From: Candidatus Calditenuis fumarioli
GTDB taxonomy: Archaea; Thermoproteota; Nitrososphaeria_A; Caldarchaeales; Calditenuaceae
Length of the DNA: 64,000 nucleotides
NCBI GenBank assembly: GCA_030059665.1
Contig: JANVYR010000002.1
Coordinates: forward strand, 448,001-512,000
Reading direction: 5' to 3'
The notes under the pieces were generated by a model. The model did no database searches. It worked only from the letters and a program-made list of their open reading frames with translations, and was not told the DNA's origin. Shown piece after piece: positions 39,219 to 45,447 of the stretch. Position 1 is the first letter of the stretch; every line of letters begins with the position of its first letter. Made by a program: the position numbers and the translations under genes.

Positions 39219-42200
39219 CTAATTCTTCGTTAATGCCCCATTAGCCACCGCCTCCCTGATGTGCATCAGGACGTCTTCAATCACGCCCTCGGGGTTGATC
39301 CACCACTCGCTCGACCAGATCCTGTATATCCTCCAACCCAATCTCTCGAGGTGTCTCTGCCTGATCCAGTCCCTCTCCCGAGCTGTCCTGTGACTGTGGT
39401 ACAGCCTTCCGTCGCACTCTATCCCCAAGATGAACCGGCCGTTATGCAAGACTCCTATGTCGATCCTGTACCTTCCCACCCCGACCTGAGGGACGAGTTC
39501 CACCTCTTTGTTCAATCCCTCATTGGTCAGGGCCGCCTGCAGACGTTTGAAGACCTCCTCCTCAAAGGGCGAGTCGAAAGGCTCTATGTGTGGATGTGAA
39601 GCTCCTCCCCTTTCGGCGTACTCCAAAAAGTCCCTCAGGACCCTTACGCCACGCGGGTCGTTGTCGTTAACCCTGATCATGTCGTATTTCATTGACGAGA
39701 CGACCCATAGCATCTTCCTGGCTCTGGATATCAGGACGTTGATGCGTCTCTCTCCGCCTTCATTATTGATCGGCCCGAACGTCTTGCGCACCACTCCTTC
39801 GACCGGTCCGTAGGTCATGCTGATTATCACGAGGTCTGCCTCCCTTCCCTGCACCGTCTCCAAATTCCTGACCAGCAGCCTGCCGTCCTCTTCCATCTCA
39901 TCGATCAGATCGGCGACTTCCCTCTCGCGATAGGGTAATGGAACGGTCAGGTGCTTCGCGTACCTGAAGGCCCTGAGCCTTTCCCTGTCCATGGGGCCCC
40001 TCCGATCAGATTGGGATTGTGCCTTGTAGTCCTCGATGAGACCCTTTATTGCGTCCTGCTGCCTCTCGTTCATCGCCACTATCAGGATGCTCTTGTATTC
40101 CTTCGATTTCACCGCCTCGATGAGCCGCCAAAGAACTACTGCTGCCTCGTTCGGATTTACACCGGTTTTCGATATGTAGTTGCCGTTTTCGACGAAGAAG
40201 AACCGCACCCTCCTGTCATTAGGATCTGCTGAGGGATACACCACCAGACGGTTGTCGTAAAAATAAGCGTTGGAGAACGCGATGAGCGATTCGTGCTCTC
40301 CTCTGTAGTACCACCTGAGCCACTCCTCGCCGAAGACCCTGAAACCTGAAGAGTTGGTGTTGAGACATGCCTCCAGCAGACCCTCGGGAGTTTCGATTTC
40401 CTCGCCCTCCTCGTCCTCCTGCTGCTCGATCCTTCTCGTGAAGTAGTCCGTGGGTGGCATCTGCTGCTCGTCGCCGACTACTATGACCTGACGGCCTCTC
40501 GCTATTGCGGGGAGTGCTCGCTCCGTTTGCACCTGTGACGCCTCGTCGAAGACCACCACGTCGAAGAGCTGACCCTTGAGACCCCTCAGCAGCGTGGATA
40601 CCATAAGAGGAGTCATGATCAGGACGGGTTTGACCAGCAGTATCTCGTTTAAGTGGTCACGCATGATGCGGACGAGGGGGCGCCTCCTTCTGATCTTGAG
40701 CTGGTGGGCTGCGAGTTCCCTTAGCCTCATTATTGGACCTTTGAATAGCCGCGGACCACCGGGCAACGTTCTAAGCCCTAAGTTCAGTCTGATGGTGTGG
40801 ATGACCTTGCTCCTCAACGCGAGCGCTGCCAGCGCCACACTTCGGCCTTCTCCTAAGCGCTGCCCATCTCCATGTGTGTAGAGGCCATCGTAGTAACCGA
40901 TGAGCTTCTGCATCGCTCCCTTAGGGCCCTCACGCACCTCGCTCAGCAGGCTTACGAGTGCCCTCCTCAGCTTATTACCCGACCGCTCGTAAGCGACGAT
41001 AGATTCCCAGACCTCCGTGAGCTCGTCGAACGAACCGAAATTCTCAAGCAGTCTGTCAACGAAGCGCGAAAATTCCCGGTCGGCGATAACCCCTGCCAAG
41101 TCTAGGAGACGCTGAAGCTGAATCCCGAAGCTATCGCTTTCAGCCAGATCTTCTAGCACTATGACTGTGCGGTCGAGCAGCTCGGGGAGTACCAAATCCT
41201 TCCGGACGGCTTCCGCGTCAATAAGCCACTGCAGAAATCCACGCAGATCGCCTAGTCTCTTAGCGAGGCCCTGCAGGTCCAGCTCGGTATCGAAGAACTG
41301 CTGGGCGTACGCGAGCAATTCGTCCTCACCATCTGGAGATGGTTCGAATCCTAAAGCTTCGAGAGCGCGCTCACGACCATCAAGCAGTCTCCGCAGAGCC
41401 CTTTCTAGTTCTATTGTTGGCATCTTGTCTACTGCATGTCCCAGGAGCTGCCTGAGCTCGTTCACAAGTTCCTCCCTTAGATTCGAGGCATACTCGAGTT
41501 CGGAGAGCGTTCTATCCCTCTGGTAGTAGAGCTGACGTTTGATCTCTTTACGAGCGGTATCCGGTTCTATGCCGTACCTCCTCAGCTCGTGGGCCCACTG
41601 AGCGAGATGCCTGTGTCCCAGTAAAATCGTCTTGATTCTCGAGATCAGCCCCCGGGGGAAGAGCCTCATCATCAACTCATCTATGTCTTTCACCTCTTGG
41701 CTGAGATGATCGATCTTTCCATCCAACTCGAGGATCTGACGTGTGAGCTCCAGAGCGCGCTGCAACTTTCGTATGCTCAGCTTCACTTTCAGACCGTCCG
41801 TCACAACGTTCAGCAGCTTCACGCATTCACCGACACTCCTTTGGCCTTGAAGCCAGTTTAACAACCTCATTGATGAGGCGAGGTAACTTATCGCAAGAGA
41901 CAGCTCCTCAGCGCTAGGATTCTGCTCCAGCCCGAGCCTGCTTCGGAGCCAGGCGACCGTCTGAAACAATGCGGGATCTAGGGTTCTCTGGCCTGTCTCT
42001 TCCCTTAGCTCAAAGGCGCTGAGTATCGCAGCGGAGTACTTCTGTTCTTCGAACCATCTGCGTACCGTATCCCTACCATGCTCCGCGAGAAGCTGCCGTA
42101 AAACCTGAACCTTTTCACGCTTCTCCAGTAGCGCCTTGCTAGCGATTGCGAGGTCGTGTCTCATCTCGTTGCCTGAGACCAGGGCCAGATACTCCGAGTA

Positions 42201-43511
42201 GCGACCGTAGACGTTCCCAGGTAGGGGTGGGGGACCTGTAGCTGTTTCGCGGAGGGTGTGGCGCCCCTCACCCAACAGGAGGTCTATTGTGCGTATCAGA
42301 TCTTCAAGGACCCTGTCTCGGTCTTCCCTTGACGTGCTGAGCACCTCAAGCACGGGAAGGTCCAGACCAGCCCCCCTCAGCCTGCTGATCACCACGTCGG
42401 CGGCGTCCTTCTTCTCGACGACGAAGAGCGCCCTCTTCCCCTCGGCGGCCAGCATGACCAGCAGATTCGCTATGGTCTGGCTCTTGCCTGTGCCAGGAGG
42501 TCCGTGAACCACGAGGTTCTCGCCCCTGAGGGCTCTTCGGATAACCCTCACCTGCGACTCGTCTGCAGGCAGAGGTGTGAGCAGTCCGTCGAGTTCGTAT
42601 GGCTCGGGATCGTCGTTGGACGGTGGTTCACGTGGTGCCGCTGTGGTGTCGCCGCAGATCGCCCTGATGACCGGGTGTTTGAGCATCTCTCCGCGAAGCT
42701 CCATTGCGTCGTAGTAGATCGCCATGTCTGGAAACCCGAGCATCGCAAACCAGCACCGCCTCTTGACACCCTGGAAGAACCATCGACCTTTGAAGGCGTC
42801 CTCAAGAGCGTCTATGGCGCGGTTCAATTCCTCAACCGAGGTGAAGTACTCCTCGTCACCGGCGAGCCCTCCGCTGCGTCTCCCAATCGTCTCCTTCAGG
42901 TCGATCTCGTAGAGCTTCTGAAGGTAGACTCGCAGAGCTGGATTCAGCCTGAACCCGTCCTCGTCTAGAGTGACCTCGTAAATTTTCCTTCCCTCCCTTC
43001 GCCTAGGTCTTGCGGAGATGCTGCACCTGGCGATGAAGAGGGGTGAGCCAACGACCTGCTTCCCCTCGTTACCGGTGCCGTGCTGGCGGCGCCCCTCGGG
43101 TTCCCGCCATAGCAGCAGACCGTAGATCAAGTAAACGGATCCCGACCCTGTCTCGCTTCGTCGCTCCCTGTCGCGCCACATCATGCGGTTAACAAGATCG
43201 ACGAGGTCCTGATCGTCGGTTATTTTCAGCTCCTTCTCGACCGCCTCCCTATCGATGAATCGATCGGAGCCTGACACTACGGACCAGTCGTCCACGTTGA
43301 CGGCCAGCAGCTGCGCGCTTCCACCGTCCTCGTCCAATACCTCGTAGAGGATGTCCTCTCGAAGCGGGATGCATCTGGCCAGAACGCGGTCGCTGACTGA
43401 GAAGTAGAGCGACCTGTTCCTTCTGGAGATGTCGATGAGTCTCAGTAGAAATTTCTCGAGTCTCTCCTGTACTTTGATCGCGTGCTCGTCGCCGCTTACC
43501 CGTCGGCCCAT
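39219..43511 (-). CDS. DUF4011-SF1 helicase-Vsr-like nuclease (Hhe-like defence protein)
   Basis: LIDISRRNRSL (DUF4011), GPPGTGKSQT, FDEASQ, GDEQQMPP, YYRGEH, NVLISRAR, then SPFEEEV...YRIDI...GIECDG..YH..TARERD..RQ..LE..GW. TTTATAAC upstream supports ATG 43511. Confidence 0.9.
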   Translation of the reverse strand: MGRRVSGDEHAIKVQERLEKFLLRLIDISRRNRSLYFSVSDRVLARCIPLREDILYEVLDEDGGSAQLLAVNVDDWSVVSGSDRFIDREAVEKELKITDDQDLVDLVNRMMWRDRERRSETGSGSVYLIYGLLLWREPEGRRQHGTGNEGKQVVGSPLFIARCSISARPRRREGRKIYEVTLDEDGFRLNPALRVYLQKLYEIDLKETIGRRSGGLAGDEEYFTSVEELNRAIDALEDAFKGRWFFQGVKRRCWFAMLGFPDMAIYYDAMELRGEMLKHPVIRAICGDTTAAPREPPSNDDPEPYELDGLLTPLPADESQVRVIRRALRGENLVVHGPPGTGKSQTIANLLVMLAAEGKRALFVVEKKDAADVVISRLRGAGLDLPVLEVLSTSREDRDRVLEDLIRTIDLLLGEGRHTLRETATGPPPLPGNVYGRYSEYLALVSGNEMRHDLAIASKALLEKREKVQVLRQLLAEHGRDTVRRWFEEQKYSAAILSAFELREETGQRTLDPALFQTVAWLRSRLGLEQNPSAEELSLAISYLASSMRLLNWLQGQRSVGECVKLLNVVTDGLKVKLSIRKLQRALELTRQILELDGKIDHLSQEVKDIDELMMRLFPRGLISRIKTILLGHRHLAQWAHELRRYGIEPDTARKEIKRQLYYQRDRTLSELEYASNLREELVNELRQLLGHAVDKMPTIELERALRRLLDGRERALEALGFEPSPDGEDELLAYAQQFFDTELDLQGLAKRLGDLRGFLQWLIDAEAVRKDLVLPELLDRTVIVLEDLAESDSFGIQLQRLLDLAGVIADREFSRFVDRLLENFGSFDELTEVWESIVAYERSGNKLRRALVSLLSEVREGPKGAMQKLIGYYDGLYTHGDGQRLGEGRSVALAALALRSKVIHTIRLNLGLRTLPGGPRLFKGPIMRLRELAAHQLKIRRRRPLVRIMRDHLNEILLVKPVLIMTPLMVSTLLRGLKGQLFDVVVFDEASQVQTERALPAIARGRQVIVVGDEQQMPPTDYFTRRIEQQEDEEGEEIETPEGLLEACLNTNSSGFRVFGEEWLRWYYRGEHESLIAFSNAYFYDNRLVVYPSADPNDRRVRFFFVENGNYISKTGVNPNEAAVVLWRLIEAVKSKEYKSILIVAMNERQQDAIKGLIEDYKAQSQSDRRGPMDRERLRAFRYAKHLTVPLPYREREVADLIDEMEEDGRLLVRNLETVQGREADLVIISMTYGPVEGVVRKTFGPINNEGGERRINVLISRARKMLWVVSSMKYDMIRVNDNDPRGVRVLRDFLEYAERGGASHPHIEPFDSPFEEEVFKRLQAALTNEGLNKEVELVPQVGVGRYRIDIGVLHNGRFILGIECDGRLYHSHRTARERDWIRQRHLERLGWRIYRIWSSEWWINPEGVIEDVLMHIREAVANGALTKN

Positions 43512-43718
43512 CCCGGGCGTTCGAACGTCTTGGCCCTTCACATGTTATAAACAATTTCCTTTGATAATGCGTTGTGGCTCGATTCGCGGGTCCCCAGGGC
43601 TTCACTACTAGCGGTTGGAAAACGGATGGTATCCCAGTCGCTCCGAAGTTCTTGTGAACTCGTCCTCTCTCGGAAGTTCTGGCGTTAAGTCGTGAGTCCA
43701 TGACTCCTGGCCGTTCAG

Positions 43719-43845
<127 letters not shown>

Positions 43846-44048
43846 TCACGATTACTGCTGTTTCATGCTACTATTTAAAACTAGTAATTAAGGGGAAGTT
43901 TTACGTCAAACTGAGAATATTAGGGAAATTGCTAAGAGAAGACGGCATGTTGTTACATAGATGGGAGAGATAAATAAATGTTGACTTTGAGAAGAGGAGA
44001 AGGAAATGAAGGGAGGGGTTAACTAGCGGACGGTCATTAGTATTGCTT

Positions 44049-44160
44049 AGGGGAGCCGAATGAGGACCTCAGGCACTGGGCTTTTAACTGCTTCATCCCC
44101 CCTAACGGTAGGTCTGCACTCGTCGCTCTTCTGCCGAGACCCCATCCGGCTCTTTCCCCC
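44049..44160 (-). ncRNA. Dual-guide hairpin RNA (bridge-RNA/tigRNA-like loop) matching tRNA-Lys
   Basis: Roughly 25-bp interrupted outer stem, symmetric internal loop GCA-GAAGAGCGACG-AGTGC / GCA-GTTAAAAGCCC-AGTGC, inner CCTA-ccgt-TAGG hairpin; starts 4 nt after the nuclease stop codon. Confidence 0.8.
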
Positions 44161-44164
44161 ATTT

Positions 44165-44923
44165 TCACTCCTTCACCGCTTTCAGTGCTTTCTTTATGGT
44201 TTTCAAAACCTCCCGCACCTCTTTTCTCTTGATCTTCCGTCTTCTCTTTACGCTGACGGTCAACGAATTTACGGCTTCCCTCAGGGTTTTATTCAGCCAG
44301 CAATAAGACATCACCTTCCTCAGCCCTAGGCTGAAGTCGACAAATAATAGCAGTTGGACCAAGGCCACTCTTCCGTAGAGGCATCTCTTTGAGTTGATTC
44401 CCAATCTCTCCGATATCTGATGGATCGGTAGGAAGCTTCTCGCCAGCGAGTCTATCTCCCTGGCCAGTTTATCTTTCCGCCTTCTGAGCGATCTGATCAG
44501 CTGGTTATAATGCACCTTAGTCTCCTCATCACCTGCTTGACGCGACAGTTGCTTCACTAGTTTCAGTTGCCCTTTCGTCATCCTATATTCGTGTAGAAGC
44601 ATCCGTATCTTCAGCTCGTTTTCCGTTAACTCCCTGAAGAATTGCTGGGGTATTCTCATTAACGCCTTAACGTCATTCTCATCGCTCTTAGTTTCTCTGT
44701 ACTTCTTAATGACGTCCGTCCTCTTCAGGTAGAATATTCTGATGCCTCTTGCCAATAGCTTCTCGAACTCCTGATATCTGGTCAGCTGGATAGCGTCTAC
44801 ATAGAGTTCGTCTCCGGCTTGAGCTGGTATGTCGCTAAGCTCCTTGAACCTCATAACGACACCGTCTGCTACGACCACGTGATCCTTCCTCCAGTGGACG
44901 TCAGCGTAGAACTTTTTGGACAT
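44165..44923 (-). CDS. IS110/TasR-like protein: RuvC (D8, D43, D81, D84), coiled coil, truncated Tnp/Nop-like domain
   Basis: FYADV, LYVDA and KSDENDVKAL match the IS110 DEDD domain; LRKVMSYCWL-NKTLREAV matches SYxGL...GNxxLR but lacks the intervening serine loop. ATG 44923 follows a purine-rich SD-like tract; the track extension to 45106 is likely non-coding. Confidence 0.8.
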   Translation of the reverse strand: MSKKFYADVHWRKDHVVVADGVVMRFKELSDIPAQAGDELYVDAIQLTRYQEFEKLLARGIRIFYLKRTDVIKKYRETKSDENDVKALMRIPQQFFRELTENELKIRMLLHEYRMTKGQLKLVKQLSRQAGDEETKVHYNQLIRSLRRRKDKLAREIDSLARSFLPIHQISERLGINSKRCLYGRVALVQLLLFVDFSLGLRKVMSYCWLNKTLREAVNSLTVSVKRRRKIKRKEVREVLKTIKKALKAVKE

Positions 44924-45411
44924 TTTCTTATCCCATCCCCTTTTCGCAGATTCCCCGATGGGGGCGTCACGCCCGAAGATGCCAACGGAGGGCGCGCCCT
45001 CTTCACCCGGGCTGGGGACCGCGACTGCCTCTGGGTTAACTCCGGCGTCCTGAACAATTTCACCACTCATTCTATCACCCAATGACAAGTCCTCAAGACC
45101 ATCCATCTCGCTAAGTAGTTTTCAGTGAAAGCTACTCAAACTTTGCCTTTCAGCAACCCTTTCACTGGCTTTCGGTGGCTTTCTGAGAGGAATGCAGGGG
45201 CTAGTTCTATCGCGTTTATGCCCCAACACCATACATGGAATGTTGAGCATTTGAGCATCTTATGGTCTCACAGTGGATTGATCTCGAGGGAGGGAGTTCT
45301 GAAGGCGATGATGGATCAAGCTGATGAAATGCAGTCGAGCAGTCGATAGGAGTGAAGCAGGTATAACGAGGGATGAAGATTTCTGAAGATTTCTTTCATG
45401 TTTCATATTCT

Positions 45412-45447
45412 AAAGCCGGCCGCTCTTCCTGGCTGAGCTACGGGCCC
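45412..45447 (-). pseudogene. 5' fragment of tRNA-Lys (intron-less), ending in the anticodon loop
   Basis: GGGCCCGTAGCTCAGCCAGGAAGAGCGGCCGGCTTT: first 27 nt identical to the spliced tRNA, then 2 substitutions; TTTAAT about 25-29 bp upstream in host-like sequence. Confidence 0.85.

Follow-up and report, generated by a model that had tools for sequence, protein, structure and literature searches.

A serine-less RuvC/Nop-like protein and a dual-spacer hairpin RNA as the probable effector pair of a self-immunising mobile element in an archaeal tRNA-Lys gene

The genome of Candidatus Calditenuis fumarioli carries, in the 64,000-nucleotide (nt) stretch that was analysed here (contig JANVYR010000002.1 of assembly GCA_030059665.1, positions 448,001 to 512,000; the window), a compact open reading frame (ORF) for a 252-residue protein that resembles both the IS110 recombinases and the TasR nucleases and that lies beside a gene for tRNA-Lys(UUU). 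What does such a protein do when the serine loop of the IS110 recombinases is lacking, and why does it stand at a tRNA gene? A preliminary description, made from the letters of the DNA, had proposed an RNA-guided nuclease or binder "rather than a transposase" in a "cellular tRNA locus". Both phrases had to be withdrawn in the present study, in that the tRNA-Lys gene is interrupted by an insertion whose only ORF encodes this protein, the guide spells the insertion site, an empty site exists in a sister species, and the protein family is multicopy. For the same reasons the protein is taken to serve mobility, either by cutting or by recombining. We propose, with a probability of about 0.65, that the ORF and a hairpin RNA form the effector pair of a 1,630-bp self-immunising mobile element, which would cut its target and enter it by homing or, in some subfamilies, by a transposition step. 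The less specific part of this proposal, namely that the insertion is a mobile element with an RNA guide directed at this tRNA site, is very probable.

The insertion was observed by comparison with a sister species of the same genus (G005). There, an intact tRNA-Lys(UUU) that lacks the D-arm hairpin comes after the ortholog of the upstream gene (77% identical). Relative to this empty site, the insert comprises 1,630 bp (45420-43791) with CG on each side. On the minus strand, the locus has the order tRNA 5' fragment, leader, ORF, hairpin RNA, C-/T-rich motif, TATA-like box and complete tRNA-Lys(UUU) (Table 1). The displaced tRNA fragment lies 32 nt past the stop codon of the upstream gene, where G005 has its intact tRNA-Lys, and an exact 25-nt direct repeat (45423-45447 and 43821-43845, spacing 1602, 100% identical) links it to the rebuilt gene. 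The protein family had no match in six genomes of the same genus (66-90% complete), and the GC content was 45-50% in the insert versus 60-65% in the flanks; this distribution and the foreign composition indicated a recent acquisition of the element. In contigs of four hot-spring sequencing runs from four studies, the element was found in pieces, and neither an empty-site junction nor a circle junction of this organism was seen. All "skip" joints in these contigs had short sides with foreign letters between them and were rejected as tRNA genes of other organisms.

The hairpin RNA gene begins 4 nt past the stop codon of the ORF. RNAalifold, applied to 3 and to 8 copies, gave a consensus in which the basal and apical stems were conserved across the eight copies, which come from four genomes. 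Two of the pairs showed compensatory changes, and the variation was concentrated in two loop strands. In the window copy, the two guide segments matched both the intron-less tRNA-Lys and the empty site of G005 at 22/22 positions, abutting each other over 21 contiguous bases that begin on the 3' side of the D stem and end in the anticodon loop, and the insertion point of the intron falls within the target of segment 1. The predicted pairing partner is the antisense DNA strand for segment 1 and the sense strand for segment 2. Moreover, the match of a guide to its own tRNA, with constant spacing, recurred in six elements of three genomes. These are the window element (tRNA-Lys), two further copies in the same 1.57-Mb genome (G000) at tRNA-Asn (L002) and tRNA-Thr (L003), two elements of genome G017 at tRNA-Arg GCG and CCT, and the element of Caldiarchaeum subterraneum (G024) at tRNA-Thr. 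In a 6x6 cross table, the best fit of every guide pair was its own tRNA; comparable off-diagonal cells were found only for the two tRNA-Thr(GGU) elements mutually (segment 2) and for segment 1 of L002 on tRNA-Arg(GCG). In the copies of G024 that lie outside tRNA genes, exact 9-mers of the segments were present in sense orientation in the left flank directly at the junction, and antisense 9-mers were present in the right flank, 28-785 nt past the conserved right end.

Table 1. Features of the element and its target gene, with positions in the window.
Feature	Position	Strand	Description
Displaced 5' fragment of the original tRNA-Lys(UUU)	45421..45447	(-)	25 nt equal to rebuilt exon 1, then CG; native promoter side upstream
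Left arm and leader	44924..45420	(-)	starts GCCGGCTTTAGAA; homologous to L003 5' of its ORF; GC ~46-53%
ORF, 252 aa	44165..44923	(-)	RuvC-like domain (D8, D43, D81, D84), coiled coil, Nop-like helical domain without serine loop
Hairpin guide RNA gene (predicted)	44050..44160	(-)	basal stem, large internal loop, apical stem-loop; RNAalifold consensus
Guide segment 1, GAAGAGCGACG	44121..44131	(-)	same sense as tRNA-Lys bases 20-30 (linear count); 11/11
Guide segment 2, GTTAAAAGCCC	44078..44088	(-)	complementary to tRNA-Lys bases 30-40, in the anticodon stem and loop; 11/11
C-rich then T-rich motif, TTAACCCCTCCCTTCATTTCC	44002..44022	(-)	3' of the RNA; counterpart of the right core end "...CCAGCCAACC..CCCCTATTTTTCC" of relatives
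TATA-like box, TTTAAATA	43872..43879	(-)	26 nt upstream of the rebuilt tRNA, element-borne; same box before the rebuilt tRNAs of L002 and L003
Element-borne exon 1 of rebuilt tRNA-Lys(UUU)	43821..43845	(-)	25-nt repeat
30-nt hairpin intron (predicted)	43791..43820	(-)	D arm, standard position 24/25, bulge-helix-bulge-like setting
Rest of tRNA-Lys(UUU)	43720..43790	(-)	anticodon arm, T arm, acceptor 3' strand, encoded CCA

The guide RNAs of TIGR-Tas systems (tigRNAs) carry two spacers of approximately 9 nt that pair with opposite strands of adjacent DNA (PMC12045711). By analogy, a sense and an antisense segment on adjoining halves of one duplex appear to follow the logic of tigRNA spacers A and B, and equally that of the target-binding loop of IS110. 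No tandem repeat was found near the gene and each element has one hairpin, in agreement with the earlier statement that one hairpin guide takes the place of a TIGR array. A donor-binding loop was likewise not found, since the hairpin has one internal loop only and no RNA match of at least 7 nt to the joined element ends was present in the window element or in L002; searching the RNA or inner parts against the joined ends returned only the self-complement of the intron and chance hits in the ORF. The C-rich/T-rich motif, which is kept in every subfamily examined, is probably an RNA terminator.

Because the two segments read opposite strands of one duplex, a guide for RNA modification was excluded. 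Such a reading, in which a box C/D-like guide and a Nop5-like scaffold modify the tRNA-Lys RNA without any action on DNA, could draw on segment 2, which is antisense to the RNA of the anticodon arm, and on Nop5, Nop56/58 and Prp31 among the lower fold matches. However, segment 1 is in the sense orientation of the tRNA and so cannot pair with the transcript, the acidic RuvC residues are intact unlike those of Nop5, and the locus is an insertion. A box C/D assignment of GAUGA...CUGA was also rejected, as the CUGA-like box forms part of a regular helix and has been lost from L003. We therefore regard this explanation as hardly credible.

The 252-residue frame was intact and free of stops on translation, and the four acidic residues of the RuvC-like domain were located at the positions given for them earlier, the second being Asp (D43) versus Glu in IS110. 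In an alignment of 37 family members, K79 was invariant and D43, D84, R76 and L66 were nearly so, and the family motif K(S/T)DxxDA was that of the IS110 DEDD domains; in a profile search, KSDENDA of the window protein aligned to NKTDTVDA of IS621. The AlphaFold2 model obtained with the family alignment (predicted local confidence, pLDDT, 96.7; predicted template-modelling score, pTM, 0.90) comprised a small beta/alpha N-terminal domain (residues 1-99), long helices at 101-128 and 133-161, and a helical C-terminal domain without a beta hairpin. Foldseek returned ISCro4, IS621 and TasR at the top, each with probability 1.0 and a template-modelling (TM) score of approximately 0.6. With VIA-align, TasR (9mty_A) was the best structural match (Z 14.3, root-mean-square deviation (rmsd) 4.4 over 233 residues), followed by ISCro4 (Z 12.6), IS621 (Z 12.2) and the group of Nop5, Nop56/58 and Prp31 (Z 7.2-7.7); TasH matched over the C-terminal domain only (Z 12.5, rmsd 2.9), and phage RuvC matched residues 1-95 (Z 6.7). 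Furthermore, the family profile found TasH in the PDB over the Nop-like C-terminal domain (E 7e-5) and IS621 over the range from KTDxxDA to GLTPRRYESG (E 2e-3).

These comparisons with IS621, TasR and Nop5, which the preliminary description had called for, bore out its assignment of a RuvC, coiled-coil and Nop-like architecture common to IS110 and TasR. As modelled, the N-terminal domain is IS110-like by its motif and the C-terminal domain is Tas-like through the missing serine hairpin, which places the protein between IS110 and Tas by sequence and fold.

Scans of the window protein with Pfam and NCBIfam gave no model above threshold. PF01548 and PF02371 did not reach their gathering scores; the best PF01548 value was E ~0.01, matches occurred in 5/37 members, and the window protein was not among them. 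A word-indexed search of 5.8 billion proteins returned three clusters only, all of them paralogs from the same genome, and an exhaustive profile search yielded 141 cluster representatives with full-length members of 240-330 residues. Where sources give names, the members are called "hypothetical protein" of Caldarchaeum or Nitrososphaerota metagenome-assembled genomes. The reading frame stays open 5' to ATG 45070 (301 residues) and ATG 45106 (313 residues), so that the leader includes a possible N-terminal extension, and database gene calls for the protein have 301-313 residues. The true start codon is uncertain because the extension is common to the window protein and its paralog in L003 (~55% identity) and is absent from that in L002.

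The catalytic serine of the recombinases was not found. In the window protein, SYCWL abuts NKTLREAV with nothing between them, as described before; the Ser-Gly motif of the recombinase sequence GLxPxxxxSG was absent from this copy and from its paralogs, and no such conserved column exists in the 37 members, in which the stretch between Y-x-G-L and Y-N-x-x-x-R varies from 0 to 22 residues without a conserved Ser. The model is all-helical there. The two closest paralogs in the same genome have 8 extra residues at this point (TYTGNYYPNDGKYNK), again without a Ser-Gly motif. The loop G-x-Y-x-P-x-x-G-x-Y-N is kept by these paralogs and by the outgroups P0005, P0009 and P0010, and its conserved Gly is changed to Trp in the window copy. 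By comparison of the sequences, the 8-residue gap (24 nt, SYCW/LNKT) is thus a derived in-frame deletion. A decayed IS110 with a recent internal deletion had been considered earlier. Relative to the paralogs the deletion was indeed present. However, the serine is missing from the longer forms as well, and the copy is therefore not a decayed IS110.

The same deletion raises the question of whether the window copy is a dead passenger, that is, whether the family is mobile and this copy became inactive through the 24-nt loss in its RNA-binding Nop-like domain, leaving a locus that only serves as the tRNA-Lys gene. The loop retained by paralogs and outgroups and the substituted Gly speak in this direction. 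However, the ORF is intact, the guides fit the target at every position and the 25-nt repeat is still identical; moreover, the deletion allele is present in contigs from many hot-spring studies, the loop is wholly missing in five distant members, one of them with the same YCW, and the pLDDT exceeds 90 across the deletion site. An inactive passenger is accordingly considered improbable.

The family was present in 17/40 related genomes and reached 60 or more matches in a single genome. Many matches lay at contig ends or were broken by stops, and the genome of the window itself had 4 protein-level and 12 profile-level matches. One member, P0005 (CSUB_C1679, HGMM_F14A09C06), is 41% identical to the window protein and had been described, without a name for its family, by Sugahara et al. 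in 2012 (PMC3293823). They reported an 1,868-bp "insertion sequence" between a 5' fragment of tRNA-Thr and a tRNA-Thr with a new 24/25 intron, containing an 813-bp ORF of unknown family and present in six to seven copies per genome, and they found empty and occupied alleles of the tRNA-Thr element within one Caldiarchaeum population (PMC3293823). Judging from the sequences, the window element is a relative of this insertion sequence in another genus and another tRNA. In the literature searched, no paper tied the Caldiarchaeum insertion sequence to IS110 or Tas or noted a guide RNA.

Sugahara et al. proposed recombination of the plasmid-integrase type as its origin (PMC3293823). Applied to the window, this would mean that the element was inserted in trans by a tyrosine integrase from a plasmid or virus of the pNOB8 type, for which tRNA genes are the attachment sites, and that the ORF encodes an accessory DNA-binding protein. 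A direct repeat of a tRNA segment, which resembles attL/attR, and the foreign composition are in line with this proposal. No integrase is encoded in the 1.63 kb, however, where the RuvC/Nop-like protein is the only ORF; the repeat corresponds to the tRNA 5' end and not to the 3' end, and the loop strands that co-vary with six tRNA targets would be left unexplained. This origin is very unlikely.

How guides come to differ among copies was addressed with four elements of G024 (L026, L027, L030 and L031), which share approximately 1.6 kb at 86-96% identity, have entirely different guide cores of 6-7 nt, and match their own flanks with their guides. Concerted evolution of the shared core together with locus-specific selection of guides is the preferred hypothesis for this hypervariability; alternatively, the guides may be rewritten by some other route. 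In G024, each copy has its own DNA between the right junction and the conserved right end, and blastn-short detected no long duplication of the left flank within it. In one copy, this DNA (L026:1053-1836 (-)) includes a 415-nt stretch that resembles, by eye, the start of a gatD-type host gene; an 84%-identical second copy lies at G024:C1:824137-824545, and the same gatD-like sequence is found directly 3' of an element in genome G030 (G030:C2:211986-212393).

How does the host keep a tRNA-Lys in spite of the insertion? The complete rebuilt tRNA-Lys(UUU) spans 43845-43720 and was recognised as an Rfam tRNA with 40.6 bits; by-eye alignment with the tRNA of G005 placed an ordinary anticodon-loop intron at about 43759-43777. 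The D-arm intron, by contrast, is absent at the empty site of G005, and its hairpin motif ATTGGG...CCCAAT occurs three times in the genome of the window, solely at the three element-linked tRNAs, so that this intron travels with the element. In all six introns, bases -6 to -3 of exon 1 can form 3-4 pairs with the four intron bases before the last two of the intron, and this central helix of 3-4 bp is bounded in 6/6 introns by AG|N and NA|C bulges beside the intron's own stem. The helix co-varies with the tRNA (GAAG/CTTC, GCGG/CTGA, ACAG/CTGG, GGAG/CTCA), and excision of the intron by splicing is predicted. ARAGORN found no second gene for tRNA-Lys(UUU) or tRNA-Asn in the assembly, from which 9% of the genome is missing; the rebuilt copies of both must therefore work. 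Targets may generally have their 5' parts rebuilt, in protein-coding genes as well as in tRNAs. In L002, the D loop of the rebuilt tRNA-Asn has an A (GGAAGAG) where the displaced native fragment has a T (GGTAGAG) (1175-1197 versus 2448-2470); this A completes the GAAG/CTTC helix, and it would reflect either adaptation of the exon to the intron or inheritance from a Lys-type element.

The position of the intron is also of consequence for the element. It falls between bases 6 and 7 of the segment 1 target, which is thereby divided into 6+5 nt, and the occupied gene therefore no longer contains the guide site. The traits of homing elements were found together at this locus, as the predicted recognition site extends across the point of insertion and is gone from the occupied allele, and an empty allele exists in G005.

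On the technical side, ARAGORN without its intron option missed the tRNA-Lys, and with introns it reported the whole 1.7 kb as one intron-bearing tRNA, which was rejected as an artefact of the duplicated 5' exon. In this mode the displaced 5' fragment is joined to the 3' half at G000:C2:491720-493447 and G000:C1:626773-628148, which appear as tRNAs with introns of 1.3-1.7 kb. Intron-tolerant tRNA calls at element loci are thus a likely source of mis-annotation in such genomes.

Taken as a mechanism, the proposal of an effector pair would proceed as follows. The expressed hairpin RNA would present two guide segments of 9-11 nt in one internal loop, and these would pair with opposite strands of the 21 contiguous bases of an uninterrupted tRNA-Lys gene. 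The protein would most likely bind the hairpin RNA as a dimer, like TasR, and its RuvC site would act on the target DNA. The element would then enter, or be copied into, the cut gene via host recombination from an occupied allele (homing); in some subfamilies, a transposition step may take the place of this route. Survival of the host would be secured by the element-borne TATA box, the new tRNA 5' exon and the 30-nt intron in its splice-motif setting, and occupied genes would cease to be targets, with the intron inside the target of segment 1 (self-immunity). Where two tRNAs have the same acceptor stem, the similarity of their genes could provide the arms for a jump from one to the other; tRNAs starting with GGGCCCG are Lys and Asn in the genome of the window and both Arg in G017.

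For the entry itself, cut-and-copy, in which a TasR-like cut is repaired from the occupied allele, is put forward tentatively and by analogy, with the odds standing somewhat against it. It was favoured because the serine is absent, TasR is the best structural match and the locus follows the logic of homing elements. Furthermore, it was favoured over a donor-recognising recombinase because the RNA has no donor loop and is not complementary to the element ends, and because the junction-proximal ends are not conserved among copies and the junction overlap varies (2 nt in the window, 3 nt in Caldiarchaeum and 7 nt in L002). Under one geometry, the cutting rule of TasR (fifth spacer base) would put an antisense nick at the intron site; the register and strand geometry are not fixed, and this coincidence was not used as evidence.

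Alternatively, a true RNA-guided recombinase or transposase of the IS110/IS1111 type might exchange strands at the CG core by its RuvC site alone, without a serine intermediate, with the hairpin as a seekRNA-like target loop and the donor ends read by the protein or by another RNA. The K(S/T)DxxDA motif, the weak PF01548 matches, and IS621 and ISCro4 among the top fold matches speak for such an enzyme, as do an RNA 3' of the ORF as in IS1111, CG at both junctions, guides that match the flanks of each copy, and the high copy numbers and contig-end positions typical of active insertion sequence (IS) elements. Nevertheless, no member of the family has the beta hairpin that bears the serine, and the single loop without complementarity to the ends, the unconserved ends with their variable overlap and the closer match to TasR count against it as well. 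We consider this explanation rather unlikely.

Several points weigh against the cutting element proposed here. The IS110-like motif and the CG at both junctions, as in an IS110 core, fit direct recombination; 20-60 copies per genome, each with its own guides, would be hard to reach by homing alone; and the proposal does not account for the retargeting of guides and of rebuilt 5' parts. With regard to the protein, the D81 column is Ala, Thr or His in the subfamilies of P0005, P0007, P0008, P0011 and P0012 (KSARND, KSAKAD), which include the multicopy Caldiarchaeum elements. The catalytic residues thus vary across the family, which puts its RuvC chemistry in doubt. The window copy may in addition be inactive owing to its deletion and Gly-to-Trp change, and the central helix of its splice motif has only 3/4 pairs.

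Beyond this locus, there is nearly an even chance that the serine-less family is a living intermediate between IS110 and TIGR-Tas/Nop5 that writes non-canonical tRNA introns and leaves orphan tRNA halves, acting as an RNA-guided gene drive. An uninterrupted tRNA gene would be cut and replaced by an immune, intron-bearing copy, and a deletion between the 5'-exon repeats would leave a solo intron. The finding bears on the divergence of IS110 recombinases, TIGR-Tas nucleases and the Nop5 scaffold of box C/D ribonucleoproteins (RNPs), in that the family combines a RuvC motif of the IS110 type with a Nop domain that is serine-free like that of Tas and with one dual-spacer RNA. Vaysset et al. reportedly found no archaeal intermediate in 2024. 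It bears equally on the origin of non-canonical tRNA introns and of split or fragmented tRNA genes in thermophilic archaea, where an identifiable element would deliver a tailored 24/25 intron that also shields the gene from re-targeting; the ideas of "intron transposition" and "introns protect against integration" are united by such an element-borne intron. The content of the 2012 Caldiarchaeum insertion sequence is also seen in a new light. Finally, the system is compact (252 residues and an RNA of ~110 nt) and thermophilic, with no flanking-motif requirement shown, and could serve as a programmable DNA tool.

Some further observations were made in and beside the element. A 9-bp stem-loop in the leader, 45123-45167 (-) (CAGTGAAAG...CTTTCACTG), is kept in L003 with one G-U change and is absent in L002; it may belong to a leader RNA or a regulator. 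The first 13 insert bases, 45408-45420 (-) (GCCGGCTTTAGAA), match the right target half ACGGGCTTTTAAC at 8/13 positions, so that they either would descend by mutation from the original anticodon arm or would reflect a likeness between donor and target of the kind found in IS110. Immediately 3' of the tRNA-Lys lies a gene, 39219-43541 (-), for a protein of 1,440 residues with DUF4011, an SF1 helicase (AAA_11/AAA_12) and a REase_MTES_1575/DUF559 nuclease. Its GC content is 54-59% versus ~63% nearby, and G005 has another gene 3' of the tRNA; this gene may be a second, defence-type island on the 3' side of the same tRNA-Lys.

Among known systems, TIGR-Tas has several features in common with the element. 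TasR (Faure et al. 2025, PMC12045711; PDB 9mty) likewise combines a RuvC domain with a coiled coil and a Nop-like domain and lacks a serine nucleophile, and the guides of both have the order stem, spacer, hairpin, spacer, stem, with no evident flanking motif. The geometry of the target is common to both by match (11+11 nt, abutting), the pairing in the window element being predicted from sequence. TIGR-Tas differs in having an array of 36-nt units, whereas one hairpin of ~110 nt is present here; no match to TasR exists at the sequence level, the RuvC motif being IS110-like; and the target here is the insertion site of the element itself in a host tRNA gene, which the mobile element rebuilds. 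With IS110/IS1111 (IS621, ISCro4; PDB 8wt6, 8wt9, 9t56), the element shares the fold (Z 12.2-12.6) and K(T/S)DxxDA, the small size with one ORF and one structured RNA, guide halves that read opposite target strands and a dinucleotide at both junctions, and with IS1111 the RNA 3' of the ORF. Unlike these elements, it has no catalytic Ser loop, no donor-binding loop and no conserved junction ends, the Pfam models are not reached, its guides differ among copies, and it carries a rebuilt part of the target gene.

Archaeal Nop5 of the box C/D small RNPs likewise has a coiled coil and a Nop-like domain (Z 7.2-7.7) and works with an RNA of two-guide architecture, but here the acidic RuvC residues are intact, no K-turn boxes are kept and the guides follow the logic of a DNA duplex. 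A homologous element is the 1.87-kb insertion in tRNA-Thr(GGU) of Caldiarchaeum subterraneum (PMC3293823), with its homologous ORF "b" (813 bp, P0005), upstream tRNA 5' fragment, new 24/25 intron and several copies per genome; the target is tRNA-Thr there and tRNA-Lys(UUU) in another genus here, and in the 2012 paper no family was given for the protein and the guide RNA was not seen. Homing endonuclease genes (introns, inteins), as well as the retention of IS200/IS605 elements by TnpB/IscB, provide a parallel in which insertion destroys a recognition site that reaches across the point of entry, and in which the host gene stays functional through splicing, as is predicted here. The difference is that recognition in the present element would be by RNA guides, and that the nuclease gene lies outside the intron, beside the duplicated 5' exon.

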